A DNA stretch of 58,172 nt from Helicobacteraceae bacterium (GTDB taxonomy: Bacteria > Campylobacterota > Campylobacteria > Campylobacterales > Sulfurimonadaceae), in NCBI GenBank assembly GCA_027052175.1, contig JALUFE010000013.1:1-58172 (forward strand), read 5' to 3'. Shown in pieces: positions 393-17,967 of the stretch (the stretch's first letter is position 1; every line of letters begins with the position of its first letter). The notes below the pieces were generated by a model. It made no database searches. It was not told the origin of the DNA and saw only the letters and a program-made list of their open reading frames with translations. Made by a program: the position numbers and the translations under genes.

Positions 393-1628
393 ATGGCGGT
401 TTCAACCGATTTCGCTCCACCGTTTAAGCTGATAGCACCCTACTTTATACTGGGTATTTTCGCTTTTGTCATATCGGTTTTCATGCTCTATGGAGTGGAT
501 GTCGAAGATATCTTTCAGACTTCGGCCCAGACGATAGCGTGGGTGCATCTGTTTTTACTTGGATTTGTAATGATGATAATATTTGGTGCGATGGCGCAGC
601 TGGTTCCTGTCGTGCTCGAAGTCGGTCATTTCGCGGTCGATCTCTACTATGCCATCTATCCGCTCCTGTTTATCGGCTCGTTCACGATGGGGTACGGTTT
701 TTTGTATGCACCCGGTGTCCTGCCTTATGGCGGTATAATCGTACTTATATCTCTCCTTATCTTCGTCGCCGAAACTTTTTTGACCATTAACAAGGTCAAA
801 AAGTTCAACACGGTTATGATCAGTGTCATCATTGCCAATCTCTTTTTGTTGTTTGGAATGCTCTTTGGCATCACTTTGGCACTAGGCTATGCCGGTGAGA
901 TCAATGTAGATCTCTCGGCTCTCCTGCAGGCACATGTCTATCTCGTACTTTTTGGCTATGTTGGAGTGACGATCATGGGAATCAGCATGGTCCTTTTACC
1001 TATGTTCTGGCTTAGCCACAGCTTTAGCTGGAAACCTGTACAAACAGCATTGTGGCTGATATCTGTCGGTGTTGTCGCTGTAGTCTTCTCTTCACTGACG
1101 GATATACAGGTTATAGCCTATATAGGATACATGCTTACACTTCTGGCTTACGCTTTTTATATCTACCAGATATACATCATCTACAAAACACGCGTACGTA
1201 TCGAGAAGGATATCTACAGAGACTCCCTGCTTTTCTCCTATATCAGTTTTATAATGGCTCTCCTCTTTGGTGTTGCCGGTTTCATAACCAAAAATGAGCA
1301 TATATTTATAGCAGGAGGATTTCTTGCTCTTGTCGGTTTCGTTGCCTTTTTGATCATCGGACATCTGTATAAGATCGTTCCGTTTTTGGTTTGGTATCAG
1401 CGCTTCAGCCCACTGGTCGGTAAGGAAAAAGTTCCTATGCTTGCCGATATGGTTCCAGCTCGCAGTGCGAAATTCGGTTTTAGCTACAATGCTGCCGGAG
1501 TTGCGGTTGCTACGGCGGCACTTGCAACTTCCCAGCCGGTTTTGTTCGATGCCGGTGTGAGCTTTTTACTTGTCGGCTCACTTTTTGTCTTCAAAGATAT
1601 TATTTATATGATTAATTACAAAGGATAA
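393..1628 (+). CDS. polytopic (about 12 TM) membrane protein with His-containing TM motifs, tentatively NnrS-like
   Basis: 411 aa. Repeated motif H-x3-L-G-F/Y-V-x4-G-x5-P (WVHLFLLGFVMMIIFGAMAQLVP; AHVYLVLFGYVGVTIMGISMVLLP; IGHLYKIVPF). Starts 3 nt after the previous stop. Certain as a CDS; the family call is tentative. Confidence 0.5.
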   Translation: MAVSTDFAPPFKLIAPYFILGIFAFVISVFMLYGVDVEDIFQTSAQTIAWVHLFLLGFVMMIIFGAMAQLVPVVLEVGHFAVDLYYAIYPLLFIGSFTMGYGFLYAPGVLPYGGIIVLISLLIFVAETFLTINKVKKFNTVMISVIIANLFLLFGMLFGITLALGYAGEINVDLSALLQAHVYLVLFGYVGVTIMGISMVLLPMFWLSHSFSWKPVQTALWLISVGVVAVVFSSLTDIQVIAYIGYMLTLLAYAFYIYQIYIIYKTRVRIEKDIYRDSLLFSYISFIMALLFGVAGFITKNEHIFIAGGFLALVGFVAFLIIGHLYKIVPFLVWYQRFSPLVGKEKVPMLADMVPARSAKFGFSYNAAGVAVATAALATSQPVLFDAGVSFLLVGSLFVFKDIIYMINYKG

Positions 1629-1943: not shown

Positions 1944-1955
1944 AACAAATTTCAA

Positions 1956-1978
1956 TACTGCCTAATATTTAGGCAGTA
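1956..1978 (+). other. perfect 10-bp stem / 3-nt loop hairpin after the DUF59 gene
   Basis: TACTGCCTAA-TAT-TTAGGCAGTA. It is followed by A-rich rather than T-rich sequence, so it is not a classical intrinsic terminator on the + strand. Confidence 0.4.
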
Positions 1979-2065
1979 AAATAACTACAAAACCGTTTAT
2001 TTTTCCTATAATCCTTTGGTAATTTTGGGAAAACCGCTGATTGCTTGTTTTCCATGATTTTCATT

Positions 2066-2104
2066 TCAATATTTCTATATTCCTCTATTTATTAGAAATA
2101 TTGA
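2066..2104. promoter_or_regulatory. 12-bp perfect inverted repeat (TCAATATTTCTA-N15-TAGAAATATTGA) upstream of the HCO-like operon
   Basis: Read directly from the sequence. It ends 24 nt before the ATG at 2129. A TATAAT at 2007-2012 and a second 7-bp hairpin (2028-2034 / 2047-2053) lie upstream. Confidence 0.45.
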
Positions 2105-2128
2105 TATATTACAACTAAAGGATTGCTT

Positions 2129-2740
2129 ATGACGTTTGCTTCTTCGGCAGAACTACTGTCGTTTCACTGGGTCGTCTATACGATCTACGCAGCACTGATC
2201 CTCTCGGTGATTGTCTGGTTCGCTTACAACCTTACAAGAAAAGAGAAGGTCAAATCTATCGTGCGTATTCCGTTTTATGGGTATATTGCCGTATTGGTTG
2301 CCGGCGGTGTGGGACACCACATCTTTACATACAACTCCATACCATGGGTTGCACAAGACATTATGCGTGACGAGATCAAACCGGACGCTTCTTACGAGAT
2401 CACGATCAAAGATCACAAGTGGATCGATCTTCCCAAAAAAGTGGTCGTCCAATGTGGTCAAACGGTTCGCTTCAATGCCAGAAGCGAAGATCTTGTTTAT
2501 GGATTTGGACTCTTTAGACAAGACGGAACAATGGCTATGCAGATGCAGGTCAATCCAGGTAAAGATGCTACAGGGATACTCAAACCAAACGACATCCTCT
2601 GGACATTCAACAAAAACGGCAGCTTCGATCTGACCTCGACGGAGTACTCCGGACCGGAGCAGTATGATGAAAACGGACACGACAAAATGCTGGTAAAAAA
2701 CTGGCTTGAAGTTGTCGGATGTGAAAAGAAAAAGGGGTAA
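2129..2740 (+). CDS. heme-copper oxidase subunit II-like cupredoxin protein lacking CuA ligands
   Basis: Two N-terminal TM helices plus a cupredoxin-like domain. CuA ligand positions read SEDLVYGF (His to Tyr) and STEYSGPEQ (Cys to Ser, Cys to Ser, His to Gln). ATG at 2129 preferred over the TTG at 2123 (AAAGGA SD at 2116-2121). Confidence 0.7.
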   Translation: MTFASSAELLSFHWVVYTIYAALILSVIVWFAYNLTRKEKVKSIVRIPFYGYIAVLVAGGVGHHIFTYNSIPWVAQDIMRDEIKPDASYEITIKDHKWIDLPKKVVVQCGQTVRFNARSEDLVYGFGLFRQDGTMAMQMQVNPGKDATGILKPNDILWTFNKNGSFDLTSTEYSGPEQYDENGHDKMLVKNWLEVVGCEKKKG

Positions 2741-2743
2741 AAT

Positions 2744-4417
2744 ATGAGTTTGATGAACAATTTGATAAACGGTACGGACTTTGATCATACAAAGCTCAAC
2801 GCTTTACAGAAAGTCACACTGCGTGCAGTCGTTATGAGCTTTCTTTTTTACGGACTTGTAGCGACTGAGGGGATGATCATGAGAATGGTGCAAACAGGTC
2901 CATCCAATCCTCTGCCTTCGATGTTCTCTCATCCGGATCACTACTTCTCGATCATGACGGTACACCCGATCGTGGGGATATTCGGCTCGACCTATCAACT
3001 GGTCTTTGCGGCGTTTATGTTCCTAGTACCCTACCTCACCAAAAAGCCACTCTACAGCGTCAAACTCGCCAATGCGGTCTGGTTACTCATCACGATAGGA
3101 ACGGCTCTGGCATGGCTTGCGGCATTCTTTACGCATTATGCACCGCTTTATACGCTCTACTGGCCGCTTCCTGCCGACACCTCACAGTTTAGCACCATCG
3201 GCGGAATCGTCTTCATCATCGGTATCGCACTTATCATGATAGGAACACTCGGTTTTATCTACAACATCTATGCGACAATCTTCGCACGTGTGGGTATCCA
3301 TAAAAACAAAACGACAAAAGAGTTGCTTATCTCCGGATTTGGGATCGATGGAATGCTCAACCTCGTCCACAAACTCACGGGCAAACCACCCTACTCCAAA
3401 GAGCCTGCACTCGCCCTTCCGGTCGTCGCTATCTTCCGTGGTACGGTCGATACCTTCCTCGATGCCATCGTCATCCTCGGTGCCGGGGTACTTGTGCTTG
3501 TTTATCTACTCTTCGATCTCGGCGGGCATCCACTGAGTGTCGAAGCGATCAGTGCACTTCTATACAAAAACTACTTCTGGTGGGGTCTTGACCTTGTTGC
3601 TGATGGACTTGTTCTTATCTATGTCGCGGGGAGCTGGTATCTTCTAGCTACACTCATCACTGGACAGAAGCTCTTTATGGAAAACGTCGCGCGTGCAGCA
3701 CTTATGCTCGAACTCCTCGTCTCCTGGATGGTATGGTCACACCACCTCCTCTCCGATCAGCCACAGCCTGAAATGATGAAACTGATCTCTGGAGAGATGG
3801 TTACGGCATTCGAGTTGCTTACACAAGGGCTTGCGCTCTTTATCACGCTTGTAACACTCTGGAAAGCCAGACCGCTTAAAATGACACCACCGCTTGCTTA
3901 TCTTCTCGGTGGTCTTGCGGGCTTCGGTCTTGCCGTACCGGCGGGAATCATCCAGGCGGACATGGGGCTTAACCGTGTACTTCACAATACACAGTGGATC
4001 AGTTTTGCACACTTCCACATAGCGCTGATCGTTGGGCTGTATATGACACTCTACAGTGCGCTTTACGTCCTCTGGCCGCTTGTAACAAACAACACTACGC
4101 TCTTTTCCAAAAAAATGACGTGGACACACTTCTGGCTCTACCTCATCGGCGGGATCGGAATGGGTGCCTTTGGCGGGATGGCAGGACTTGAAGGGATGCT
4201 TCGCCGACATCTCTATGTCAACGGTGAGTTCAACACGCTTATGATCCTTGCAGCCGTATTTGGCAGTATGATCCTCATCGCCTGGGTGATTTTCCTACTC
4301 AATATCGTCCTCTCCGTCGGTCTCAAAGGGCTTATAGGCATCTTTCTGCCGGCCGAAGATGAAACCGCATCTTTTGGCATCGAACCCGAACCTGAACCGG
4401 TTCCCGTCAAAGCATAA
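2744..4417 (+). CDS. heme-copper oxidase subunit I-like protein, NOR-like active site (D283/D287/H333/H334)
   Basis: 557 aa, about 12-14 TM. Has MTVHPIVG (H74), FWWGLDLVADG, WSHHLL (H333/H334) and LHNTQWISFAHFHIAL (H414/H423/H425). No CXXCH. Confidence 0.8.
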   Translation: MSLMNNLINGTDFDHTKLNALQKVTLRAVVMSFLFYGLVATEGMIMRMVQTGPSNPLPSMFSHPDHYFSIMTVHPIVGIFGSTYQLVFAAFMFLVPYLTKKPLYSVKLANAVWLLITIGTALAWLAAFFTHYAPLYTLYWPLPADTSQFSTIGGIVFIIGIALIMIGTLGFIYNIYATIFARVGIHKNKTTKELLISGFGIDGMLNLVHKLTGKPPYSKEPALALPVVAIFRGTVDTFLDAIVILGAGVLVLVYLLFDLGGHPLSVEAISALLYKNYFWWGLDLVADGLVLIYVAGSWYLLATLITGQKLFMENVARAALMLELLVSWMVWSHHLLSDQPQPEMMKLISGEMVTAFELLTQGLALFITLVTLWKARPLKMTPPLAYLLGGLAGFGLAVPAGIIQADMGLNRVLHNTQWISFAHFHIALIVGLYMTLYSALYVLWPLVTNNTTLFSKKMTWTHFWLYLIGGIGMGAFGGMAGLEGMLRRHLYVNGEFNTLMILAAVFGSMILIAWVIFLLNIVLSVGLKGLIGIFLPAEDETASFGIEPEPEPVPVKA

Positions 4418-4424
4418 CAAATTT

Positions 4425-4443
4425 CAAGGCCTTTTAGGCCTTG
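4425..4443 (+). terminator. weak stem-loop after the HCO subunit I-like gene
   Basis: CAAGGCC-TTTTA-GGCCTTG, 8 nt after the stop. No T-tract follows, and the next ATG is 14 nt downstream, so read-through is likely. Confidence 0.3.
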
Positions 4444-4456
4444 CCAAGGACAGCGT

Positions 4457-5062
4457 ATGATTCATCTGCCAAGAGTTGCCAAAGAGATTCAGACAATCGG
4501 ACTGTACGATCTTGTTTTACAGGATGTCCAAAAGATCACGGGCAAACAGAAACCTGCAGTGGATGAGATACAAGAAACACTCAAAACACATCCTCAAGTG
4601 CTGCAAGACTACAAACAGATCAATCTTGAGTACAACCTCAGCAACATTCATCTCAAAAATATCGAAGTGGAAAAACTTCCGCTTGATTGCAAAGAAGAGG
4701 CACAAAAGATCAACGAAAACCTCGAAAAACTGCGTGAAATAGAGAAATATACACTCGAATTCGAACAGAGCTCGACACTTGTCATCATATTTTCGGTGGA
4801 ATTTTTCGTTCTCTTTTCGGTACAGTACTTCATTGTCCTGCTCAATCTCAAAGAGTGGCAATGGTGGATATACGGCTTTTTCGCTCTCTCGATCGTTGCG
4901 GCCTGGCTCTATGCAAAAAAAGTCAAAAAACAGTATCATATCAACAGCGCTTTGTTCGAAGATCTCTACGAAAAAACGCTTGACATGATTGCGGAGCTTG
5001 AAAATCGCGGTTGTATAGACAAAAAGGAACTCATTATAGAGGAGTGCGAAGAGCATGTCTGA
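4457..5062 (+). CDS. hypothetical membrane protein (charged coiled-coil-like N-terminus, 2 TM)
   Basis: 201 aa. Overlaps the next ORF by 8 nt (ATGTCTGA). The antisense ORF 4517-5116 is Phe/Cys-rich and looks like a shadow frame. Confidence 0.5.
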   Translation: MIHLPRVAKEIQTIGLYDLVLQDVQKITGKQKPAVDEIQETLKTHPQVLQDYKQINLEYNLSNIHLKNIEVEKLPLDCKEEAQKINENLEKLREIEKYTLEFEQSSTLVIIFSVEFFVLFSVQYFIVLLNLKEWQWWIYGFFALSIVAAWLYAKKVKKQYHINSALFEDLYEKTLDMIAELENRGCIDKKELIIEECEEHV

Positions 5063-5546
5063 TACGGTATCCCTGCAGATAGAGTGGACAACAAACAAGG
5101 CTCTCCAGGCAAGCAAAGCACTCTACGACTATGAGATGAAACATTCACTCAAACGTTATATAGGCTGGCTTTTCATCGCCTTGATGCAGTTTGGCATCGT
5201 TGCACTTTTCAAACATCAAAATCCGATGCTTTTCCTTGTCAGTTCGTTTCTCGTTGTCTACTGGTACTATGGAAGATGGTATCTTCGCCGCCGTTTGATC
5301 GAAAAATTTTACAAGAAACAAAATCTCAAAAAAAACATCATCAAGTTTTCCTGTAACGATGAAAAGCTCACCATCGGCAACGAAAAACTTTCATGGGATG
5401 ACATTCTCTACGCTATAGACACGCAAAACGCACTGCTGCTGCAGACGCAGAATGAGACACTCTATCTTCCTTATGATGCATTCAAAGATATTGAGGACAT
5501 CTCCAAGTGTACACATTTCCTCAAATCGAAAGGAAAACTCCGATGA
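5055..5546 (+). CDS. YcxB-like membrane protein (2 TM plus C-terminal domain)
   Basis: 163 aa. The architecture and the RWYLRRRL segment after the TM pair resemble the YcxB family. Confidence 0.5.
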   Translation: MSDTVSLQIEWTTNKALQASKALYDYEMKHSLKRYIGWLFIALMQFGIVALFKHQNPMLFLVSSFLVVYWYYGRWYLRRRLIEKFYKKQNLKKNIIKFSCNDEKLTIGNEKLSWDDILYAIDTQNALLLQTQNETLYLPYDAFKDIEDISKCTHFLKSKGKLR

Positions 5547-5638
5547 ATCTTTTTTTTATAATCTCCGTTATCCTTTTCGTTGTCGCACTTCTCGTCGTCG
5601 GATTTGTTATGGACAAAGAGGATATTGAGAGTGATTAG
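5543..5638 (+). CDS. candidate 31-aa single-TM micro-protein
   Basis: MNLFFIISVILFVVALLVVGFVMDKEDIESD. Its ATG overlaps the previous stop (ATGA). Too short for the ORF track. No independent SD. Confidence 0.3.
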   Translation: MNLFFIISVILFVVALLVVGFVMDKEDIESD

Positions 5639-6636
5639 GCATGCAGACGTTCCCACTCCTTGAATGCCGGTGAAAAATACTCTATGCGTACTTTTTTGAA
5701 TTCACGTGTCGAATAGAGATAACGGAACTCCTCTATTTTGATCTCGTTCGCCATCTCACCTACAATCGTCTCGACCTCCTCTTTGGATTTCCCATGCACC
5801 ATGGAAAAAAGCGGATACGGCCAGGACGGAAATGTCGGGCGCAAATAGCAGTGACTGACTGCACTGTAAGCGGCAATTGTTTCACCTATTGACTCGGCCC
5901 TCTCTTCTGGCACGCGCCAAACTACCATCGCATTCGCCGTAAAACCAGCCTTTCTATGATACAGTATCGCTGCAAAACGCCGCATTATACCGGCATCCTG
6001 CATACGCTTGACCTCTCTTTGCAAAGTCTCATAGTCTATCCCCACTCTCTCGACAAGTTCGGCAAACGGTTCCTCTGTGGGCTCTATGTTTTTTTGCAGG
6101 CTGTGGATAAGTTCATAGTGCAACGGCTCTAAGGTCATGGGAATCTTTTTTTTCTTCGCCATCTTCTCTTTCTTGGCACGATCCCCCTTCATATCGAGCT
6201 GCACGGAAATTTTGAACATCTTTTTTGTCGGGAGAATCAGGTACTCTTCTGCTTGCGTCTTCTCTGCCAGCAGTTCCACCGTCTTTTCAAGTCCAAGAGT
6301 CGAATCGGGTGGAGAGGCGATCGTAAACCAGAGATTGAAATCATGATCACGCTCATAGTTGTGACTCACCCCCGGATGTGCATTGATGATCTCGGCCGCC
6401 TTCTCGATATCATCTACTTTGAAAGCTACGAGAGATGATTTGTAGCCCAATGATTTCGTATCGAAGATAGCCGACGTCTGGCGTATGACCTTCTCATCAC
6501 ACAGTTTTCGATAAAGTGACATCAGTTCCGACTCTGTCGCACCCAATTCCTCCGCCAATAACGCAAAAGGTCTCTTGACAACCGGAAAATCTTTTTGTAT
6601 CCGTGTTAAAAATTCTTTTTCCATATCTTTTTCCAT
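5635..6636 (-). CDS. nirDL: siroheme decarboxylase, fused NirD/NirL-type (two Lrp/AsnC-like modules), heme d1 biosynthesis
   Basis: 333 aa with two tandem HTH plus AsnC-type halves (FPVVKRPFALLAEELG...; EPFAELVERVGIDYETL...). Located in a nir cluster. Confidence 0.85.
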   Translation of the reverse strand: MEKDMEKEFLTRIQKDFPVVKRPFALLAEELGATESELMSLYRKLCDEKVIRQTSAIFDTKSLGYKSSLVAFKVDDIEKAAEIINAHPGVSHNYERDHDFNLWFTIASPPDSTLGLEKTVELLAEKTQAEEYLILPTKKMFKISVQLDMKGDRAKKEKMAKKKKIPMTLEPLHYELIHSLQKNIEPTEEPFAELVERVGIDYETLQREVKRMQDAGIMRRFAAILYHRKAGFTANAMVVWRVPEERAESIGETIAAYSAVSHCYLRPTFPSWPYPLFSMVHGKSKEEVETIVGEMANEIKIEEFRYLYSTREFKKVRIEYFSPAFKEWERLHA

Positions 6637-6643
6637 AGTGGTA

Positions 6644-6714
6644 ATTGTAGAGTTTTTTACTTTAACTGAGCTTTGATAGCGGTCAAGTGAATTGTTAACA
6701 AACTATGCTACTAT
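6644..6714. promoter_or_regulatory. divergent promoter region with one FNR/Dnr-type box TTGATAGCGGTCAA (6673-6686)
   Basis: The box has one mismatch to TTGAT-N4-ATCAA. TACAAT lies on the minus strand (6649-6644) and TACTAT on the plus strand (6709-6714). Each hexamer starts 29.5-30.5 nt from the box centre. Confidence 0.6.
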
Positions 6715-6719
6715 GCCGT

Positions 6720-7301
6720 ATGTCTTATTTTCCTGCATTCATCAAACTCGACAACAAAAAGATTCTTATAATAGGAGGCGGTAAGATCGCCGGTGAAAAG
6801 CTTGAGAAGCTTCTTGATTTTACCATTTCCATTACCGTCATCGCTCCCGAAATCCTGCCCAAAACGAGGCAATACATTCAACAACATTCTTTGCAGAAGT
6901 TAGAGCGCCGTTACCAAAGCGGTGATATCGACGATTTCGATATCGTCATCGTCGCCGTCGATGATATAGAAATGCAAAAAAGAGTGTACGAGGAGTGTGA
7001 AGCAAAGAGGATTTTGTGTAACAGTGTGGATTCGATCGATTATTGCGACTTTATTTTCCCTTCCTATACAAAAAAAGGTCCACTCACTATCGCTTACTCG
7101 ACTTCTGGCATCTCACCTGCTTTTGCAAAGTATCTGCGTCGCACGATGGAGCAGCTTATTCCCGACTCCGTAACGGACTTTTTATCTCAAATGCAGCTGC
7201 TGCGAAAATCGCTTCCAAAAGGCAAAGAACGTATGCAGTTGCTTGATGAAAAAGCTAAAACATATGTCAAACAACTCTTTAAGGACACAAATGTTCAGTA
7301 A
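6720..7301 (+). CDS. precorrin-2 dehydrogenase / sirohydrochlorin ferrochelatase (SirC / CysG-N / Met8-like)
   Basis: Rossmann motif ILIIGGGKIAGEKL. 193 aa from the ATG at 6720. The ATG at 6705 lies upstream of the predicted -10, so it is disfavoured. Confidence 0.8.
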   Translation: MSYFPAFIKLDNKKILIIGGGKIAGEKLEKLLDFTISITVIAPEILPKTRQYIQQHSLQKLERRYQSGDIDDFDIVIVAVDDIEMQKRVYEECEAKRILCNSVDSIDYCDFIFPSYTKKGPLTIAYSTSGISPAFAKYLRRTMEQLIPDSVTDFLSQMQLLRKSLPKGKERMQLLDEKAKTYVKQLFKDTNVQ

Positions 7302-7662: not shown

Positions 7663-8013
7663 CTCAGCATCTATATCACCCAAAATCGGCCCTTTTAAAA
7701 GAACTTCGTCGCTGTTTAATAAAAAATATGCCGGATACTGCGTAGTATAAAGCAGCTCCACAGGATAGCTCTGCTGCCCCTTTACAATGATCACTATAAT
7801 ACACTTCTCTTTGAGCCATTTCGCAATGTCCTGACGATACAGTGTCTGTATCAAGGTTTTGATCTGTTTGTCGTGTGGTTGAACCAGCAGAACTAAAAGA
7901 TATTTTTTTTCACTTCGCGCTTCTTCGATCGCTTTTTCGTAATCACCTCTAAAATGTAAATTTTCAGCTATACTCAAGCTATATAATAAAAGTATAAAAA
8001 AAAGAGATTTCAT
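7624..8013 (-). CDS. secreted thioredoxin-fold (Thioredoxin_7/DUF255-like) protein without a CXXC motif
   Basis: Signal peptide, then DYEKAIEEARSEKKYLLVLLVQPHDKQIK, where thioredoxin-like proteins carry W-C-x-x-C. Confidence 0.5.
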   Translation of the reverse strand: MKSLFFILLLYSLSIAENLHFRGDYEKAIEEARSEKKYLLVLLVQPHDKQIKTLIQTLYRQDIAKWLKEKCIIVIIVKGQQSYPVELLYTTQYPAYFLLNSDEVLLKGPILGDIDAELFKEEFMHKAAL

Positions 8014-9134
8014 TCTATTTTATAACCTACAGGATCACCTTCAAGTGTCTTCAAAAAGGCGACGATGCTCTCAATCTGATTTTTACTCAAATCTATACCA
8101 AGCTGATGTCTGGCCATTATCCGTACCGCCTCCTCGATTTTGTTCACGGAGCCGTTATGAAAGTAGGGAGCCGTACGTGTGACGTTGCGCAGAATCGGAA
8201 CACGAAAGCGAAACTGACCGTTTCTGCCGTGAAATCCCCCAATATCAGGAAAAGGATAAGGACTTTCATGAAAAAGCGAAGCGAATGAAAACTCTTTGAA
8301 GTAGCGTTTACCGTTTCTATAAACACTGTGAGGAACGATCGGCGTATCGTAAGGGCGAAGCGGAAATGTCTGTATGCTCTGGCCGCCTACAGTAATCCCG
8401 CTGTGACATCCCTTACATCCAAGCTGCATAAAAAGTGACAAACCTCTTTTAGCCTTATCGCTTATCGCATCGTCATCCCCTTCCAAAAAGCGGTCATACG
8501 CTCCGCGTGTTAGCAGTGTGCGCTCATACGCGCCTATCGCTTTGGTCACGCTATCGAACGTTATCCCCTCTTTTGGAAATACTTCTGCAAACGCTTTGAT
8601 ATAACTTTTATCTTTGCGCAGACGCTCCACCACCTCCTGAGATGTCATCGCCATTTCAAAAGGTGCCGTTATAGGTCCTTTAGCCTGATCTTCGACATCC
8701 GGACTTCGTCCATCCCAAAACTGTCGAACCGCTAAGGCGGCATTAAGTACGGTTGGTGAATTGAGATGTTTTGGATTTTGTTGATTGTGATATCCTACGG
8801 CTGTCGGACGATTGTCGTCTCCACCCGCTTCTAAGATATGACATGATGCACAGTTTATGGTTTGATCTTTTGAGAGAATAGGATCGAAATAAAGGCGCCT
8901 GCCAAGTGCGATCTTTTGAAATGAGAGAGGGTTTTTTGAGGTATCCACCAGTTTCCGTGCCTCGTTCCATCTTTTTGGAATGGGTCGAAGACCTCGTCTC
9001 AACGCCTCTTGACGAACAGCAGATGCGTCGATCACCTCTTCTTTTTCTTTTGGAAGCGGAAAGAAGTAACCCACTTTAAATAAAAAAGCCACATATGCCA
9101 ATGCAATGAAGGCGATAACAAAATGAGATTTCAT
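8010..9134 (-). CDS. di-heme cytochrome c peroxidase (CCP/MauG family)
   Basis: Two heme c sites (CASCH, CKGCH). Typical CCP motifs FWDGR and PYFHNGS. Confidence 0.9.
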   Translation of the reverse strand: MKSHFVIAFIALAYVAFLFKVGYFFPLPKEKEEVIDASAVRQEALRRGLRPIPKRWNEARKLVDTSKNPLSFQKIALGRRLYFDPILSKDQTINCASCHILEAGGDDNRPTAVGYHNQQNPKHLNSPTVLNAALAVRQFWDGRSPDVEDQAKGPITAPFEMAMTSQEVVERLRKDKSYIKAFAEVFPKEGITFDSVTKAIGAYERTLLTRGAYDRFLEGDDDAISDKAKRGLSLFMQLGCKGCHSGITVGGQSIQTFPLRPYDTPIVPHSVYRNGKRYFKEFSFASLFHESPYPFPDIGGFHGRNGQFRFRVPILRNVTRTAPYFHNGSVNKIEEAVRIMARHQLGIDLSKNQIESIVAFLKTLEGDPVGYKIE

Positions 9135-9563: not shown

Positions 9564-10316
9564 TTATGGATTTGAATCTTCACCAAACCAGGCAAGTTCA
9601 TTTCGCAGTCTAACGACTTTGCCGACAACGATAAGTGCCGGAGTCGGCAATTTTTCCTCTTTCACTTTCATATAAATATCTTCAAGTGTTCCAACCACCG
9701 TCTTCTGCTCTTTTGTCGTTCCTCTGCTGATTACGGCACAAGGGGTTGACGCCTCTCTGCCTACTCTGATAAGATTTTTGGCGATATTTTTCAAATTGTG
9801 CAATCCCATCAAAAAAACGATCGTCTCGTCACTGCCAAGTGATTCCCAGTCCACCTGCGACGTTTCCTTATTGGGTGTTTCATGACCCGTTACAACTCGA
9901 AACGAAACTGCAACACCGCGGTGTGTCACAGGAATCCCCGCATATGCAGGTACAGAGACTGCGGAAGTTATGCCGGGAATAAATTCGAACTCAATGCCAC
10001 GCTCATAAAGATATTTTCCCTCTTCACCCCCGCGGCCGAAAACAAGCGGATCACCACCCTTGAGACGCACAACCACATCGTGCTTGAGTGCAGAGTTGTA
10101 AATCACTTCGTTGATCTGATCCTGGGGAAGAGTGTGTCGCCCGTCCTCCTTACCGACATAGATAAACTCACATCCATCTTTGGCCTCTTTGAGAATATCG
10201 GGATTTGCCAATCTATCATAAATGATGACATCGGCCTCTTGCACGACTCGAAGGGCTTTGATAGTCAAAAGCTCGATATCGCCTGGCCCTGCACCTGTTA
10301 AATAGACTTTCCCCAT
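9564..10316 (-). CDS. cobA: uroporphyrinogen-III C-methyltransferase (SUMT; NirE/CobA)
   Basis: VYLTGAGPGDIELLT N-terminus and full-length SUMT-like sequence. Located in the nir cluster. Confidence 0.9.
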   Translation of the reverse strand: MGKVYLTGAGPGDIELLTIKALRVVQEADVIIYDRLANPDILKEAKDGCEFIYVGKEDGRHTLPQDQINEVIYNSALKHDVVVRLKGGDPLVFGRGGEEGKYLYERGIEFEFIPGITSAVSVPAYAGIPVTHRGVAVSFRVVTGHETPNKETSQVDWESLGSDETIVFLMGLHNLKNIAKNLIRVGREASTPCAVISRGTTKEQKTVVGTLEDIYMKVKEEKLPTPALIVVGKVVRLRNELAWFGEDSNP

Positions 10317-11441
10317 TTACACATCCTCTCTTTCGGGCTCGTTTAAATAGCATGACGGGTCTTCCGCCCACAAATCGCCATATATGGCATACGCACGACT
10401 GCGCGAACCACCGTTGCAGATATCGATCACACCGCATTTTTCACATATGCCGCTGAGCTCCCTTGGATGTTTTCGCAGTTTCGTAAGCATTTCGTTCGAC
10501 TCATCCAGCCAAATTTCACTGAAAGGTTTTTGAGTCATATCACCGATGTAAAACGGAAAGAATGGATCAGGCTTCACACGCCCCATCCAGTCGATGTTGC
10601 CAAGTTTTCTGCCGGCACTGTTACCGCCCCACTTACGAAGCCGTCTTATCATCTCTTCTTTGAGTTCCGGGTAGCGCGCAGCAAATTTTTTGAGAAAAAA
10701 GATCGCATCCATCTCCATATTTCCCGTAACGATATCGATATTTCGCCCCTCTTCAATGTACGCAAAAGCTTTGTCTATGATAAACTCGACAAATTCCCTG
10801 CGCTCCTCTTTGGAGATATCGATCTTGAGATTCTCCAGTCCTCTGCCGCTGTAAACCAAATGCGAGATATAAATTTTATCTACCCCTATCGACTCGGCAA
10901 GCTCAAAGATAGCGTAGAAACTCTCTTTCGTTTCATTGGTGATCGTAAAGCGTATCCCGGCATTGCCGCCATGTTTTTGGATCAGAGCAATCGCTTCAAG
11001 ACTCTTTTTATAGGCTCCCTCAAGTCCGCGAAAATGATCATGCACCTCCTCGATCCCATCGATACTTATACCGATATAATTGAAAGTTTCGATGATACGA
11101 TCTACGTTTTTTTCGTTGATATACAATCCGTTTGTGGAAAGATACGTAACGATACCCGCCTTTTGCATCGCATCGGCTATATCGAATATATCACGTCGTA
11201 TCAGTGGTTCGCCGCCCGAAAAAATCACGAACCTGATACCAGCTTTTGTCAGTTCAGGGATAGAATTTAAAATAAACTCGGTTGAGAGAAAATCCTCCTG
11301 ATTTGGATCGGCATAACTGTAACAATGACGGCATGCGAGATTGCAGCGATTGGTGAAATTCCAAATAACAATACTGCCGCTAAGAGATCGCTCTTTTTTC
11401 CCTTCCGTTACCGATTTGATAAGATTGCTTAATCGAAACAC
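10317..11441 (-). CDS. nirJ: radical SAM heme d1 biosynthesis protein NirJ
   Basis: CNLACRHCY radical SAM motif and a C-terminal Cys-rich SPASM-like region. Directly abuts cobA. Confidence 0.9.
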   Translation of the reverse strand: MFRLSNLIKSVTEGKKERSLSGSIVIWNFTNRCNLACRHCYSYADPNQEDFLSTEFILNSIPELTKAGIRFVIFSGGEPLIRRDIFDIADAMQKAGIVTYLSTNGLYINEKNVDRIIETFNYIGISIDGIEEVHDHFRGLEGAYKKSLEAIALIQKHGGNAGIRFTITNETKESFYAIFELAESIGVDKIYISHLVYSGRGLENLKIDISKEERREFVEFIIDKAFAYIEEGRNIDIVTGNMEMDAIFFLKKFAARYPELKEEMIRRLRKWGGNSAGRKLGNIDWMGRVKPDPFFPFYIGDMTQKPFSEIWLDESNEMLTKLRKHPRELSGICEKCGVIDICNGGSRSRAYAIYGDLWAEDPSCYLNEPEREDV

Positions 11442-11449
11442 CGATGCTC

Positions 11450-12562
11450 CTACTCGTTATTGTCGGTATCATACAAAAAGATACCCGATGGTTTCGGAAC
11501 AGGCCATTCAAATTGCTTCCACCATTTCTTAGGATCTTGATTGGAAACATTGTATGCTACAACTTGACTTGCGGTATTGACACTGAAATAGAGATGAGGC
11601 GTCGTTTTAGACCATCGTAGATGCAAAATCCAACCGGGAAATTTGAAACGTCTGACTATTTTCAGGGTTTTTGTATCGACAATCTGCACGATTGGGAATT
11701 TTTTGCCGCTGAAAGATACCGCCAAATGTTTTTGATCCGGACTGAGTGCCGTAAAGACCGGATTGCCCTCCAGTTCAATCGATTTGACAAAATGAAAATC
11801 ATGATCGAAAACAAAAACTTTCTTGTTGCCGACCGCCGGGATAAAGAAATATTTTTTACTTATACTCCAAAACCCAAAATGCGGTACTTTGAGTACGCGC
11901 TCCTTTTTTCCAAGGGCAAGCGGCACCTTTTTATACTGCATAGTATCGAGATTCAAAACACCGACATCCGGAGAGTTGAAAAGCCCGACCACATAGAGAT
12001 TGTTGTGTATCATCGCATCAAAAGGTACTTTTCCGACATTTTTCAACCTCTTTTCAAGTACGAAGTGCGGCAACTTTTGTCCTGCCTGTTTGTCTTGCAT
12101 GATCCATATCTCGTCACTGTCCATACATGCAAAAACAAGCTTATTTTTATAAGTTTTGATGCCGACGTTGCGGCTGCCTGTTTTGATCGTTTGAACGGGG
12201 TTGAGATCACGATCGAGGATCTCGACTGTTTTGTTGTCATAGTTGGCAACGGCAAGAAAGTTCCTACCGATGATAAAACCGATAGCACTTTTGCTCGTCC
12301 TGTATTCTTTCGTTTTTACCTCTTTATCCGGATCAAACTTCACGACATAACCATCCCGTGTAATTACATAGCCGTCAGACCCGCGAAACTTGACAACCGC
12401 ATGGTTGAAGTTGTGCATATTTTTTATCTCATTGACGAGTAGATTATGATCTATCACGGCAAGTGCACTATTTTCACGCTCTACAACGAAGATTTTCTCA
12501 CGCGCCTGCGACGTCGAAAGAAATAGCAACACAACCGCTAAAGCAGTAAAGATTCTGTTCAT
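11450..12562 (-). CDS. nirF: NirF-like periplasmic d1-type beta-propeller protein (no heme c site)
   Basis: Signal peptide. 370 aa, similar in style to the NirS d1 domain. No CXXCH. Position between the cytochrome c gene and nirJ. Confidence 0.75.
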   Translation of the reverse strand: MNRIFTALAVVLLFLSTSQAREKIFVVERENSALAVIDHNLLVNEIKNMHNFNHAVVKFRGSDGYVITRDGYVVKFDPDKEVKTKEYRTSKSAIGFIIGRNFLAVANYDNKTVEILDRDLNPVQTIKTGSRNVGIKTYKNKLVFACMDSDEIWIMQDKQAGQKLPHFVLEKRLKNVGKVPFDAMIHNNLYVVGLFNSPDVGVLNLDTMQYKKVPLALGKKERVLKVPHFGFWSISKKYFFIPAVGNKKVFVFDHDFHFVKSIELEGNPVFTALSPDQKHLAVSFSGKKFPIVQIVDTKTLKIVRRFKFPGWILHLRWSKTTPHLYFSVNTASQVVAYNVSNQDPKKWWKQFEWPVPKPSGIFLYDTDNNE

Positions 12563-13009: not shown

Positions 13010-14719
13010 TTACGCTCCTGGAACTTCTTGACGATGTTCAACTGAGTAAGTGAAAGTAGGTGTAGTCAAGTTGTAGATATACTTGATAAACTCTCCCGTT
13101 TTCGCATCGTAAATACCGATACGTCCTGTTGTCCATTCACTGATCATCGTCCATTTTCCATGATTCGCAGGTTCGGCATGAAGCAGACGAGGCTGTACAG
13201 GTTTGGCGACTTTTTTGCCGAGTCTAGCAGTGTATGGCACAAGTTCCTCTTGAGATATCTTGGACTTGACCGCCTTAGGTGTTACACGTGTATACTGTGT
13301 AGCATCCCATGTCTGCAGAATCTTGCCTGTATGAGCGTCTATAAGATGCCCTTTATGTTTGTCAACCTCGATGATACGATCTGTTTTCAGCGTCTGCTTG
13401 TTGATGAGGTAGACTTTGTTGTAGTTCGTCGGTCCGCCAAGTACACAGTCAGACCAGATATATGGCGTATCTTTACTTGTTCCGACAAACAATCCACCAC
13501 CGGCTGTCGGAACGTTGGCGACGACTTCATTGTTCATATCCCAAATGACGACATCACCGACGTTCATACTGTTTGTCGCATTGAGCTGACCATATCTCTC
13601 ATTGTACCAGGAACTTCCCTGACCCGGGTGTGGTTTTGTTCCCGGACCGGTGTATATCTTCGCTGCAAGAGAGCGGGTTTTAAGGTCGATCACACCCATA
13701 AGGTCACTTCCTTGAGATGCGACATAAACAAAACGTCCGATCTGTTTTCCTTCGTTTTCAAACGCGTCGTGAAGAATTTTACCAATATTCGGTACATCCC
13801 CAACTATTGGGAAATCAGGCTTACTGTAATCGACTATATAAACATGTCCTCCATCCTTCAGCGCGAAGACGAAATATGGTGCATACGGCGTATCGGCAAT
13901 AAATGCGACACGGCTCGGTCCGATGTTACCGTCAGGATCGATCACGCTTGAAGTCGGATAGACTTTAAGCGGCTCAAGTGTTTTGGCATCACAAAGTACT
14001 GCCCCACCAGGATTATAGTTCCCAGCCATCACATACTTGCCATCAGGAGAAACCGCAAGACCCCGAGACTCTTGTCCTACCTGCACACTGGCAATAGCCG
14101 GCTGTCCAGGAGCGTTGAGATCGAACATCGTCAAACGACCGGAACGGCTGATGGAGTATGCATATCGAGGCATTCGCTTGTTCGTCACCGTAACATGCAC
14201 GGCAAATCCTGCCTTGTGGCGAGACAGAACTTTACCTGTTGTACTGTCGATAAAGTCGACCAATGAAGCGTCCCGCTCAGTAGCAAACGTAATATCTTTC
14301 ACATCTTTTACATCCACCGGTTTAGGATATTTTTTGTACAACGCTTTTCTGTCTGCAAGTTGCTTCCACGTTTTTTTAACATCATCGAGTGAAAGTTTCA
14401 ACTCTACCGTATTTTTCCAGTTCATCAGCCAATTGACCATTCCGGCCGCATCATCTTTTGTAAACATATGTTTCCATGAAGGCATAGCGGTACCTTCTCG
14501 CCCATTGAGTATCGTCTCAACAAGCGAGTAAGCCTCTTTTTTCTTCAATGCTTTCGGTCGAAGATCTGAACCGACACCACCCTGGTGAATAGGTCCATGA
14601 CATCCTTGACACTCTTTTTCGTATACTTTTGCAAAGTTCATTTTGGAAGTACCGGCATACAAAGACCCGGCAACCAAAGAAACAGCCGCTGTGGCACTGA
14701 TCAATTTTGAAATTTTCAT
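13010..14719 (-). CDS. nirS: cytochrome cd1 nitrite reductase
   Basis: 569 aa. Signal peptide, N-terminal heme c domain (CQGCHG) and a d1 propeller domain. Confidence 0.95.
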   Translation of the reverse strand: MKISKLISATAAVSLVAGSLYAGTSKMNFAKVYEKECQGCHGPIHQGGVGSDLRPKALKKKEAYSLVETILNGREGTAMPSWKHMFTKDDAAGMVNWLMNWKNTVELKLSLDDVKKTWKQLADRKALYKKYPKPVDVKDVKDITFATERDASLVDFIDSTTGKVLSRHKAGFAVHVTVTNKRMPRYAYSISRSGRLTMFDLNAPGQPAIASVQVGQESRGLAVSPDGKYVMAGNYNPGGAVLCDAKTLEPLKVYPTSSVIDPDGNIGPSRVAFIADTPYAPYFVFALKDGGHVYIVDYSKPDFPIVGDVPNIGKILHDAFENEGKQIGRFVYVASQGSDLMGVIDLKTRSLAAKIYTGPGTKPHPGQGSSWYNERYGQLNATNSMNVGDVVIWDMNNEVVANVPTAGGGLFVGTSKDTPYIWSDCVLGGPTNYNKVYLINKQTLKTDRIIEVDKHKGHLIDAHTGKILQTWDATQYTRVTPKAVKSKISQEELVPYTARLGKKVAKPVQPRLLHAEPANHGKWTMISEWTTGRIGIYDAKTGEFIKYIYNLTTPTFTYSVEHRQEVPGA

Positions 14720-14983: not shown

Positions 14984-16417
14984 TTATTGATCAGCTTCTA
15001 CTTTGCCTATAGTGAGCAAATCCCACAATAGGTAGACAAATCCGACGAATGTCACGACACCCATCGCAAGACGCCATCCCATAGCCTGAGTCATCCAAGT
15101 AAGATTTTGTGCTATGAAGTAGGCATCCCAGCCACCGCCAAGATCTGCACGCTCGACGAGCACCTGTTCATATCCGGCAATAGTAAGTGCTACAGTCATA
15201 CCAAGCACACCGAATGTGATCAAAGTGATCGCCATTTTAGACTTGAATGTCATCGTCATTTTTTTGACGCCGCTTGCACCCTGTACTCCAAGATACATCA
15301 TACCAATAAGAATCGTTGCATACGCACCGAAGAATGCCAAGTGACCGTGTGCCGCCGTAAACTGCGTTCCGTGAGTATAGATGTTTACCTGTGGAAGCGT
15401 ATGGAAAAATCCCCATATACCAGCACCCAAAAAGTTACCGAAGGCATTGAGCGCAATCCAGCCCATAGCCGGTGTATTGTTGACCGCATGCACTTCTTCA
15501 CCTTCAAGTGCTTTTGCTTCTTTATGCCCCTGCTCTTTCCCCCAGTCGTAAAGAACATGCACGAACATCGCTACAAGCGGTACAGGTTCAAGGGCACTAA
15601 AGAGCGCTCCGATCTCCCACCAGTATTCAGGTGTACCAATCCAGAAGTAGTGGTGTCCAAGACCGAGGATACCAGAACCAAAGAGCATCAAAACTTCGAT
15701 CCAGAGCCACATTTCGACTATCTCACGCTTTGCACCGAGAATCTTGATAAGACCGTATGCAGCCAAAGCACCGACAAAGACTTCCCACGTCGCTTCGACC
15801 CAAAGGTGGATAACCCACCACCACCAATACTGATCCATTGAGATATTGTCTGTAAAAAACATACCGGCAAGATAAAGACCCGCAAGTGCGAGCAGGTCAG
15901 CGACCAATACGGTCATAATTCCCGTTCGTCTTCCTTTCATATAGGTCGCAAAGACATTCCAGTAAAAAATAAGTACGACGACAACGATACCGATATCCGC
16001 CCATCTCGGCGCTTCGATATACTCACGTCCCTCGTTGATAAGCCAGATCGTACTCTCTTTTCCCGGTCCTACTTGAATGAAGATATAAACGAGCACAACA
16101 ACCGTTACAGCAGCCGTCAATACCCAAAATGCGAGCTTGCCGATCCCGGCACCAACGACCTCTTCACCTGTCTCGTCGGGGAGCATGTAGTATACTGCTC
16201 CAAGCATCGCAAAGACCATCCAGACAACGAGCGCGTTGATGTGAATCATACGTGCTACGTTAAAATCAAGCACCTCGAACAAAAATCCCGGCCATATAAA
16301 TTGGATCGCCGCAACAAGCCCTAACAGCAGCTGAGCGCCAAAGAGGACGATTGCGACACGGAAGTAGTTCATCCCCAGCTTTTGAGATTCATATTTTAAA
16401 TGTGCATTAGTGAGCAT
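14984..16417 (-). CDS. norB: nitric oxide reductase large subunit (cNOR NorB)
   Basis: 477 aa. H59, WWWWVIHLWVE (H204, E208), GHHYFW (H255/H256) and AAHGHLAFFG (H357/H359). Confidence 0.95.
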   Translation of the reverse strand: MLTNAHLKYESQKLGMNYFRVAIVLFGAQLLLGLVAAIQFIWPGFLFEVLDFNVARMIHINALVVWMVFAMLGAVYYMLPDETGEEVVGAGIGKLAFWVLTAAVTVVVLVYIFIQVGPGKESTIWLINEGREYIEAPRWADIGIVVVVLIFYWNVFATYMKGRRTGIMTVLVADLLALAGLYLAGMFFTDNISMDQYWWWWVIHLWVEATWEVFVGALAAYGLIKILGAKREIVEMWLWIEVLMLFGSGILGLGHHYFWIGTPEYWWEIGALFSALEPVPLVAMFVHVLYDWGKEQGHKEAKALEGEEVHAVNNTPAMGWIALNAFGNFLGAGIWGFFHTLPQVNIYTHGTQFTAAHGHLAFFGAYATILIGMMYLGVQGASGVKKMTMTFKSKMAITLITFGVLGMTVALTIAGYEQVLVERADLGGGWDAYFIAQNLTWMTQAMGWRLAMGVVTFVGFVYLLWDLLTIGKVEADQ

Positions 16418-17072
16418 TCGTGCCTCCTTTTAAGCGTTTCGCGTTTTGTGAAAAATTCCGCGGGAAGCCGTTCGTATCGATAGCGCTCATATGTTTCAAA
16501 AACGCCACAAGAGCAACCGCTTCATCTTTCGTGATTCCCAAATTCGGCATCATACGCGCGTGTGTCGGATATTGTGAAGGATGCATCAAAAACTCAGCCA
16601 TCGCTTCTTCTTTTGTCTGCTTGCCCGTAATGGCTTCCATTGTCCCGTCATTCCATTTTGGATCAAGCCATGCTTTGGTAAGATCAGGCGCATAATAAGC
16701 ACCGTTACCAAGAAGTGTATGGCAGTTCATACAGTTTTTCGCCTGCTCCGTCAACTTACCGTGATGCAGTAGTTCCGCAGCTTCTTTAGGGCTCCACTCT
16801 TTCCCGAAAAATGGCTCTTTCTTGCCGATAATCGGCACCTCATGTCCACGTCTTTGATCCATCTTGTAATCGATGTGATAGTTGATCACCGTGGGTGCGG
16901 GTACACGTTTTTTGATGCCTTTTTGCAAATCGGCATCGCTTCCCATACTGATTTGTCCCATCGTATCGAATGTCAACCAAATCAGCAATACGGCTGCCGT
17001 ACCCGTAACCCATGCCGCCGAACGGCGCCAGAACCGTATGCTGGTCCACACCGAAGCGCTTTTCTTACTCAT
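16407..17072 (-). CDS. norC: nitric oxide reductase cytochrome c subunit (NorC), extended form
   Basis: N-terminal TM anchor and a single CMNCH site at residues 114-118. Overlaps the norB start by 11 nt. At 221 aa it is longer than the roughly 150-aa canonical NorC. Confidence 0.85.
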   Translation of the reverse strand: MSKKSASVWTSIRFWRRSAAWVTGTAAVLLIWLTFDTMGQISMGSDADLQKGIKKRVPAPTVINYHIDYKMDQRRGHEVPIIGKKEPFFGKEWSPKEAAELLHHGKLTEQAKNCMNCHTLLGNGAYYAPDLTKAWLDPKWNDGTMEAITGKQTKEEAMAEFLMHPSQYPTHARMMPNLGITKDEAVALVAFLKHMSAIDTNGFPRNFSQNAKRLKGGTNAH

Positions 17073-17081
17073 AATTCCTCC

Positions 17082-17435
17082 TTATTTAACCGGTTGATTC
17101 CCGGTCTCCTCTGCTTGATCGTATCGTTTTTCTGCCTGTTCCACAAGATAAAAGTACAGATGCGGTGCAAACAGATACGCCACCATTGCAACCATCAATA
17201 CTTTAAATGTGAAGGGACTGCTGTGAATCCTGACAGAGAGATCATACAAACTGTACCCCTGCATAATCCAGAAAATATAAGAGACGGGCAACCATTTTTT
17301 AGAAAGGTAGCCCATCTTTGAAAATGTAACAAGCGCAGCATAACCAACGCCCAGTATCAGAACCATCGTTGAGACAACAAAGATTCCTAAAAACTCTCCC
17401 GGTGCTATTACCGGTAACGAAATGACCGTCTCCAT
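17082..17435 (-). CDS. hypothetical 3-TM membrane protein, first gene of the nor-nir operon
   Basis: 117 aa with an AAGGAG SD. Ends 9 nt before norC. Confidence 0.55.
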   Translation of the reverse strand: METVISLPVIAPGEFLGIFVVSTMVLILGVGYAALVTFSKMGYLSKKWLPVSYIFWIMQGYSLYDLSVRIHSSPFTFKVLMVAMVAYLFAPHLYFYLVEQAEKRYDQAEETGNQPVK

Positions 17436-17472: not shown

Positions 17473-17514
17473 ATTATGTCGCTTTTTAAAAACTTTAGGT
17501 TTGATATGAATCAA
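17473..17514 (-). promoter_or_regulatory. class II FNR/Dnr-type promoter: perfect box TTGATATGAATCAA (17501-17514) plus -10 CATAAT (17478-17473)
   Basis: Perfect TTGAT-N4-ATCAA palindrome. The box centre lies 29.5 nt from the first base of the -10, which corresponds to about -41.5. It is 72 nt upstream of the ATG at 17435. Confidence 0.7.
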
Positions 17515-17925: not shown

Positions 17926-17967
17926 ATAGTAACGAAACAGATAAATTTTCCAATTGACACAAATCAA
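17926..17967 (-). promoter_or_regulatory. FNR/Dnr-type box TTGACACAAATCAA (17954-17967) plus -10 TACTAT (17931-17926)
   Basis: One mismatch to the consensus. The box centre is 29.5 nt from the -10 of the minus-strand gene. The nearest plus-strand -10 candidate (TACTAT 17996-18001) is 35.5 nt away. Confidence 0.55.

Follow-up and report, generated by a model that had tools for sequence, protein, structure and literature searches.

The gNOR enzymes are a family of heme-copper oxidoreductases (HCOs) with a predicted nitric oxide (NO) reductase function, reportedly described by Sievert et al. in 2008 and by Hemp and Gennis in 2008. Here, we analyse a pair of genes that almost certainly codes for a gNOR-type (norGH) enzyme. 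It is carried by a contig of a Helicobacteraceae bacterium classified in the Sulfurimonadaceae by GTDB (GenBank assembly GCA_027052175.1, contig JALUFE010000013.1). The whole stretch analysed, positions 1 to 58,172 of the forward strand, is called the window. The two open reading frames (ORFs) are both intact, and an AAAGGA ribosome-binding site is found at 2117-2122, with ATG 2129 positioned 7 nt after it:

2129..2740, plus strand, gNOR subunit II (start ATG at 2129, with an in-frame TTG at 2123, hence frame 2123/2129-2740)
2744..4417, plus strand, gNOR subunit I, 557 residues with 12 transmembrane helices, beginning 3 nt past the subunit II stop codon

gNOR is among the few heme-copper families with a predicted function only, and it is an exception to the three-histidine rule that otherwise holds universally at the binuclear centre. 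Its defining feature is an Asp residue that replaces an otherwise universally conserved active-site His (Murali et al., PNAS 2024, PMC11214002). According to the same work, gNOR has no tyrosine cofactor, its cupredoxin subunit is devoid of the CuA residues, and it is of B-family descent, with quinol as the probable electron donor. It is prevalent in sulfidic environments, is not listed with the families whose proton channel is completely conserved and was present in 156 GTDB genomes in the 2024 survey, and no gNOR has been biochemically characterised (PMC11214002). The gNOR entry of an appendix table, which cites Sievert et al. 2008, has 'D' at the Tyr/Glu position and names the hosts as Sulfurimonas, Sulfurovum and Persephonella (PMC8756737). 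The genes have been named norGH and the enzyme called 'non-electrogenic quinone-oxidizing' (PMC8906906).

The gene pair of the window resembles gNOR in each of these sequence traits. Asp residues occupy the places of the helix-VI His and of the Tyr/Glu residue, the HH pair and the heme ligands are kept, and the partner is a cupredoxin subunit without CuA. The Sulfurovum/Sulfurimonas-type sulfur-oxidising hosts of sulfidic habitats and the co-occurrence with other NO reductases are shared as well, and there is an apparent affinity with the B family. We assign the pair to gNOR because the tested sequence features agree with the published definition of the family, and gNOR, with its His-to-Asp swap (PMC11214002), is also the NO reductase family that the sequence-only reading of this DNA had alluded to. 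The locus is a new intact example of a described family and not a new kind of enzyme. Its core genes show nothing new, leave the knowledge of the family unchanged and would not surprise a specialist. The gains are a corrected annotation, a defined four-gene expression unit and a testable prediction about promoter boxes. What goes beyond the gNOR papers that we consulted is modest, namely, the four-gene module, a widespread FNR/DNR box that is absent from this locus and the invariance of all heme-ligand His residues.

The closest solved relative of both subunits is the T. thermophilus ba3 oxidase (1EHK/3S8F), a member of the B family. The motif FWW-x2-[H/D]-x3-[Y/D] aligns without gaps between ba3 and gNOR, HH, HNT and H-x-H are shared, and Y248 of ba3 corresponds to the invariant Y299. 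In contrast, H233 and Y237 of ba3 are replaced by D283 and D287 in gNOR, which lacks a His-Tyr cofactor and, probably, CuB and has lost the CuA ligands. Thus, the three features of B-family oxygen reductases, a CuB with three His ligands, a His-Tyr cross-link and CuA, are all missing from the pair. With cNOR (3O0R and the NorCB proteins of the window), gNOR shares a Tyr-less site with a carboxylate four positions after the first ligand (E208 in NorB and D287 here) and the predicted conversion of NO to N2O. cNOR differs in keeping three His ligands and a heme-c subunit and in belonging to the C-family branch, and subunit I has only 17% identity with the NorB of the window. The D-x3-D motif in place of H-x3-E and the lack of CXXCH separate the pair from cNOR, qNOR and nNOR, whose FeB has three His ligands and a Glu and which come with a heme-c subunit or an N-terminal domain that is fused. 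It is similarly distinct from sNOR/bNOR, which have H-x3-N and a subunit II with CuA (H-x3-N was found in other representatives, P0359 and P0360), and from eNOR, with H-x3-Q, a CuA subunit and a K-channel. The same appendix table gives Q at the Tyr/Glu position in its eNOR entry (PMC8756737). Finally, a subunit II without CuA and the use of quinol electrons are found in the E. coli bo3 oxidase, and qNOR likewise uses quinol electrons and has no separate redox subunit. However, bo3 is an A-family oxygen reductase with an intact His3-Tyr site, and its CyoA subunit has only marginal similarity to subunit II, whereas qNOR is a fused enzyme of the C branch.

Active site of subunit I and cupredoxin domain of subunit II

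Subunit I matches the Pfam COX1 family (E 1.1e-48) and reaches none of the NCBIfam oxidase cutoffs (82.6 vs 670.75). More generally, every NCBIfam model stayed below cutoff with both gNOR subunits, with NorB/NorC and with the accessory ORFs. An AlphaFold2 (AF2) model of subunit I has a predicted local distance difference test score (pLDDT) of 75.7, a predicted template modelling score (pTM) of 0.81 and 12 transmembrane (TM) helices. Foldseek aligned this model with HCO subunit I structures at TM-scores of ~0.7, with no discrimination between the A and B families.

The residues expected at the cofactors are H74 (MTVHPIVG), D283 and D287 (FWWGLDLVADG), H333 and H334 (WSHHLL), and H414, H423 and H425 (LHNTQW..AHFH). 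Both ORFs and every residue named in the sequence-only reading were indeed found where it had placed them. We assigned H74 and H425 to the low-spin heme, H423 to the high-spin heme, and D283, H333 and H334 to the B site, with D287 at the position of the cross-link Tyr of oxygen reductases or the Glu of cNOR. Subunit I is devoid of Cys, CXXCH is found in neither ORF, as anticipated from the sequence, and Tyr is absent from the whole of helix VII and from the helix VI position of subunit I.

Three methods gave the same alignment of this region. In a MAFFT alignment of subunit I with 10 other HCO representatives and the NorB of the window, D283 is in a column occupied by His in all the others. 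The column of D287 contains Tyr in the oxygen reductase-like sequences, Asn in the sNOR/bNOR-like sequences and Glu in NorB. The hhalign comparison of a 30-member family profile with a 9-member profile of other HCOs yielded an identical register (probability 100, E 3.7e-59). Lastly, hmmsearch of PDB sequences with a family profile limited to TM5-TM10 returned T. thermophilus ba3 entries as top matches (E 5e-9 to 4e-8), with FWWGLDLIAD paired with FWWTGHPIVY of ba3. The resulting equivalences are D283 with H233, D287 with Y237, H333/H334 with H282/H283, H414 with H376, H423 with H384 and H425 with H386. The register that puts D283 at the metal-ligand His and D287 at the Tyr/Glu position was therefore confirmed, gap-free, by three methods of sequence comparison. 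This bears out two propositions of the sequence-only reading, which had deduced the same register from spacing and had noted the lack of a cross-link Tyr, since D287 aligns with ba3 Y237. The matches in the PDB were obtained with a diverse family profile and a core-region (TM5-TM10) profile, which were both needed; phmmer searches of PDB sequences with subunit I, or searches with a narrow profile of sequences at least 83% identical, gave no matches.

D283, D287, H333, H334, H74, H414, H423 and H425 are each present in 30 of 30 members that are 43-95% identical, with hosts that include Actinomycetota, Bacteroidota, KSB1 and Campylobacterota. D-x3-D is found in all 238 full-length members retrieved. 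A preprint states that one heme ligand of gNOR is changed from His to Glu (10.1101/592808). On the contrary, none of these 30 diverse members departs from His at the heme-ligand positions H74, H423 and H425. We also considered H262 (GGHPLSV), which the sequence-only reading had named as the residue that could turn out to occupy the ligand position. It was rejected, as His is found there in 5 of the 30 members only, and most others have a hydrophobic residue.

Five polar residues of helices VI and VIII, Y299, S349, T354, E357 and T360, are invariant across the family and located at, or at most one turn from, the K-path positions of ba3 (Y248, S309 and T312). Y299 aligns with Y248. For S309 and T312, the equivalence is ambiguous, the hhalign and hmmsearch alignments being one helical turn apart. 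Judging from this conservation, the polar residues of helices VI and VIII could form a cytoplasmic proton path; according to the literature, gNOR has no such path and its protons are assumed to be periplasmic. Two other sets of positions, E42/R47 in helix I (invariant) and H/Q66 in helix II, are candidates for the entry of electrons from quinol.

Subunit II has one strong and one weaker hydrophobic segment at its N terminus, followed by a periplasmic cupredoxin domain. It matched no Pfam or NCBIfam family. A profile built from diverse subunit II sequences, however, matches the CuA domain of ba3 (2cua, 1ehk_B and engineered variants) with E values of 3e-9 to 1e-6, and A-family subunits II and the CyoA protein of bo3 score far lower (E ~0.1 for CyoA). 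In this profile alignment, TSkDLtYGF is opposite TSPDVIHGF, and rSTEYSGPkq..m is opposite ICNQYCGLGHQNM. The columns of the CuA ligands thus read Y124 for H114, S170 for C149, S174 for C153 and Q178 for H157, with Q178 variable within the family. This replacement of H/C/C/H by Y/S/S/Q agrees with the CuA-less cupredoxin partner proposed in the sequence-only reading. The only Cys residues of subunit II are C109 and C198 in the numbering from ATG 2129, i.e. C111 and C200 in the 205-residue frame that starts at TTG. SxDLxYGFG and STEYSGP are invariant in the subunit II alignment and were found in 113 of 120 close homologues. The family keeps a strongly conserved cupredoxin scaffold in a form that cannot bind CuA.

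Only two other full-length members of the family, P0241 and P0242 (44-59% identity), were found among 1.84 billion representatives clustered at 50% identity. Full-length HCOs outside the family have at most 28% identity, mostly 25-28%, among the 150 matches listed; the family is therefore discrete. The placement in the gNOR clade, as a branch derived from the B family, is a tentative one made by clustering, with at least 43% identity inside and at most 28% outside among the matches listed, and with ba3 proteins as the best PDB matches. For genome loci, we took the best 80 of up to 538 listed tblastn relatives in 185,579 species genomes, with 63-89% identity. The nearest genomic relatives in this range are those of Sulfurovum, Nitratifractor, Hydrogenimonas, Sulfurimonas and related metagenome-assembled genomes of Campylobacterota, and most gNOR relatives belong to Campylobacterota of vents and sulfidic habitats. 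In over 120 clusters that come from several genera, amino-acid identity is 83-96%. The pair is under strong purifying selection.

The names given to these proteins in public databases are a matter of their own. NCBI labels subunit I of the relatives as 'cbb3-type cytochrome c oxidase subunit I' and JGI as 'cytochrome c oxidase subunit 1'; mislabelled examples include P0018, P0035, P0102, P0115 and P0441. This misannotation is systematic, and because of it a putative NO reductase goes unnoticed in as many as several hundred genomes.

Four-gene module and promoter region

Downstream of subunit I, two additional genes are found on the same strand:

4425..4443, no strand assigned, G+C-rich inverted repeat of 8 bp, CAAGGCCTTTTAGGCCTTG, in the spacer from subunit I to orf201, with no T-tail on the plus strand
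4457..5062, plus strand, conserved 201-residue protein (orf201), directly downstream of subunit I
5055..5546, plus strand, YcxB-like small membrane protein of 163 residues, overlapping orf201 by 8 nt and forming the fourth gene of the module

The N-terminal part of the orf201 protein is soluble, and a hydrophobic hairpin is found at about residues 106-155; the ISNIH and EKYTL motifs are conserved, and the protein matched no family in Pfam or NCBIfam. The 163-residue protein just exceeds the Pfam YcxB cutoff (23.6 bits for a cutoff of 23.3). The inverted repeat at 4425-4443 is possibly an mRNA-stability or attenuating hairpin.

In the 80 GTDB loci, subunit II adjoins subunit I in 79 cases, and orf201 is beside subunit I in ~70, including loci whose subunit I is only 63-66% identical. 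The YcxB-like gene is conserved in most of these genome loci. A reciprocal test started from orf201 in metagenomes: a gNOR subunit I gene is directly upstream on the same strand in 58 of the 59 loci with enough upstream DNA, and the YcxB-like gene follows orf201 in 65 of 65 eligible loci. Thus, gNOR in Campylobacterota is a conserved four-gene module that includes two small membrane proteins, and the orf201 and YcxB-like proteins are candidates for accessory subunits or for assembly factors. Distant gNOR loci contain only subunits II and I, with orf201 and the YcxB-like gene both absent. Genes for Rrf2 and ArsR regulators and for proteins with a hemerythrin domain are among the neighbours of these distant genes, and such genes typically accompany those of the NO-stress response.

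Upstream of subunit II, the following features were noted:

1944..2128, plus strand, intergenic region of 185 nt upstream of subunit II
1957-1977, inverted repeat with a perfect 9-bp stem just past the DUF59 gene, with no T-tail on the plus strand
2007-2012, TATAAT sequence upstream of subunit II
2101-2114, degenerate FNR-like sequence TTGATATATTACAA with two mismatches, 28 nt before the ATG

The sequence TTGA[TC]-N4-[AG]TCAA occurs within 260 nt in 77 of 103 unique regions upstream of subunit II genes, for a mean of 0.25 and a maximum of 2 in shuffled sequences. The box starts 61-80 nt before the ATG (about 72 nt) in 47 of those 77 regions. There are 43 distinct box sequences embedded in AT-rich DNA that is itself unalignable, and a TATAAT-like element is found ~20 nt downstream of the box. 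By its sequence and spacing, this arrangement is that of a class II promoter predicted to be activated by FNR, DNR or NNR. NssR-type boxes (TTAAC-N4-GTTAA) were not enriched in the same regions (39 of 103, for 37 in shuffled sequences).

Predicted reaction and alternative explanations

We consider it probable that the pair works as a gNOR-type NO reductase, an activity that is predicted for the family. Subunit I would bind the low-spin heme through H74 and H425, and its binuclear centre would pair the high-spin heme, bound by H423, with a non-heme metal that is probably iron. Two His residues, H333 and H334, and the D283 carboxylate would coordinate this metal, and D287 would serve as its fourth ligand or shuttle protons. 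Because the module comprises no CuA, heme c or cytochrome c gene, electrons would pass straight from (mena)quinol in the membrane to subunit I, like those used by bo3 oxidase and qNOR, for the reaction 2 NO + 2 e- + 2 H+ -> N2O + H2O. The His-Tyr cofactor needed for the reduction of O2 cannot form, as both partner residues are Asp. The enzyme would thus represent a second NO sink beside cNOR, possibly better suited to sulfidic conditions, and in Campylobacterota the four-gene module would usually be transcribed from an FNR/DNR-type activated promoter. A synthetic mimic of the gNOR site reduces NO, as cited in PMC11214002. If gNOR truly reduces NO and tolerates sulfide, part of the N2O produced in vents and sulfidic habitats would come from it. 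The presence of a clean, intact gNOR beside a canonical cNOR and nirS makes this bacterium a convenient system to understand why two NO reductases are kept.

Several observations weigh against this proposal. We infer the NO reductase activity from active-site logic, genetic context and the synthetic mimic, and our literature search turned up no purified or assayed gNOR. Likewise, we infer that the B site contains a non-heme iron by analogy with the His3-Glu FeB of cNOR, and the quinol site is represented solely by the candidate residues E42/R47 and H/Q66. The pLDDT of the AF2 model drops to ~50 right around the active site (residues 271-290, 330-340 and 410-420). The local HMMER alignment of the full-length profile with mitochondrial COX1 has a 4-residue gap that brings D287 opposite the His. 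We rejected this gapped register on the basis of the three ungapped alignments, in which the conserved Trp is kept, and it is less parsimonious because D283 and H333 are 50 residues apart. As to the context, nir and nor genes are missing from the surrounding 6 kb in most of the 80 genome loci, the contigs being short, although norB, nirS or nirDL adjoin gNOR in several of them. A well-placed FNR box is absent upstream of the gNOR genes of the window, as it is in the closest relative, L086. For the window, we propose that the locus has lost or replaced its FNR/DNR-type promoter.

Other explanations start from the same features. The pair might be a gNOR-type NO reductase with a donor other than quinol, if a periplasmic cytochrome c or another carrier docks on the cupredoxin domain or on subunit I. 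The invariance of STEYSGP and SxDLxYGFG does suggest that the cupredoxin domain keeps a function, c-type cytochromes are encoded nearby (nirS, NorC and the cytochrome c peroxidase), and the residues proposed for the quinol site of gNOR are candidates only. Nevertheless, this donor seems rather unlikely: the ligands of redox cofactors have all gone from subunit II, the conserved module has no cytochrome c gene, subunits II without CuA occur in quinol oxidases, and quinol is the donor predicted for gNOR (PMC11214002). The chemistry itself might also differ, with the enzyme dismutating NO, reducing another small oxidant, or sensing or detoxifying NO without respiratory turnover. There is a precedent in the qNOR relatives of Methylomirabilis, whose active sites are substituted and which have been proposed to be NO dismutases (NOD). 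We regard such a function as unlikely for gNOR, whose carboxylate-rich, Tyr-less site parallels those of cNOR and qNOR, whose synthetic mimic reduces NO, and whose FNR/DNR-type promoters, like its nir/nor neighbours, are in line with denitrification. It would nonetheless be in keeping with the replacement of a universally conserved metal ligand, which is unique in the superfamily (PMC11214002), with the status of the gNOR activity as a prediction, with the location of most loci away from denitrification genes and with the two co-conserved small proteins devoid of an assigned role.

That the pair is a terminal oxidase reducing O2, as implied by its public annotation, is very improbable. The NCBI and JGI names and a general homology with COX1 point that way, and FNR boxes also drive high-affinity oxidases. 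However, both the cross-link His and the cross-link Tyr are Asp, with no alternative Tyr in helix VII, neither CuA nor heme c is present, and the scores with the NCBIfam oxidase models remain far under cutoff. Finally, the loss of canonical ligands might be taken as a sign of a decaying or non-functional oxidase paralogue, a view that we find hardly credible given intact ORFs, the high identity over those many clusters of several genera, the invariance of the substituted residues themselves, and the conserved synteny and promoter boxes. Returning to gNOR as an NO reductase, a more elaborate version can be conceived in which an FNR/DNR-controlled module has four components, with the orf201 and YcxB-like proteins as subunits or metal-insertion factors, and the enzyme takes protons from the cytoplasm through the invariant polar residues of helices VI and VIII and conserves energy, or else in which an Asp2His2 site performs a chemistry other than NO to N2O. 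We consider this version doubtful.

Other genes of the window

The other genes relevant to the locus are listed in order of position; the remaining genes of the window are housekeeping genes, and the exact window proteins have already been deposited in NCBI/ENA.

45-389, DUF2249/TusA-like gene just upstream of gNOR
393-1628, plus strand, polytopic membrane protein of 411 residues, with 3-nt spacers on both sides
1632-1943, DUF59/SufT-like gene just upstream of gNOR
5635-6636, strand opposite to gNOR, nirDL/GH-like gene
6673-6686, DNR-like box TTGATAGCGGTCAA in the spacer between the divergent nirDL and precorrin-2 dehydrogenase genes
6705-7301, plus strand, precorrin-2 dehydrogenase
8010-9134, strand opposite to gNOR, cytochrome c peroxidase
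9564-10316, strand opposite to gNOR, nirE-like methylase
10317-11441, strand opposite to gNOR, nirJ-like radical SAM enzyme
11450-12562, strand opposite to gNOR, nirF-like gene
13010-14719, strand opposite to gNOR, nirS
14984-16417, minus strand, norB of cNOR
16407-17072, minus strand, norC (norCB together at 14984-17072)
17082-17435, minus strand, membrane protein of 117 residues, leading into norC
17501-17514, perfect FNR box TTGATATGAATCAA, ~70 nt upstream of the 117-residue ORF that precedes norC
17954-17967, FNR box with one mismatch, upstream of the region of the Crp/Fnr regulator
18228-18866, plus strand, Crp/Fnr regulator

The three genes just upstream, coding for the DUF2249, 411-residue and DUF59 proteins, are separated from gNOR by the 185-nt spacer with its inverted repeat. 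We considered them as possible accessory genes of gNOR and rejected them, as they are linked to it in none of the 80 genome loci and in 2 of 80 metagenome loci. A His-x(~20)-LxP motif recurs in the 411-residue protein, whose match to Pfam COX1 is below threshold (E 0.023). Its comparison with HCOs by hhalign gave a probability of 8%, and its single-sequence AF2 model has a pLDDT of 54. It could be a distant HCO-like protein or an NnrS-like protein of the NO response.

The denitrification island, with norCB, nirS and heme-d1 genes, is located 1-13 kb downstream of the gNOR pair. The sequence-only reading was correct in placing the pair in a nirS/norCB setting and in crediting the bacterium with two different NO reductase candidates. 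Indeed, the NorB of the window matches the P. aeruginosa cNOR (3o0r_B) with an E value of 1.3e-92, and its H204 and E208 align with the His and Glu of FeB; in terms of sequence, it is a bona fide cNOR. The distance from the perfect FNR box to the ATG in the nor operon is the same as the ~72 nt of the gNOR relatives. Together, this box and the 117-residue ORF before norC suggest a three-gene nor operon predicted to be under FNR/DNR control.

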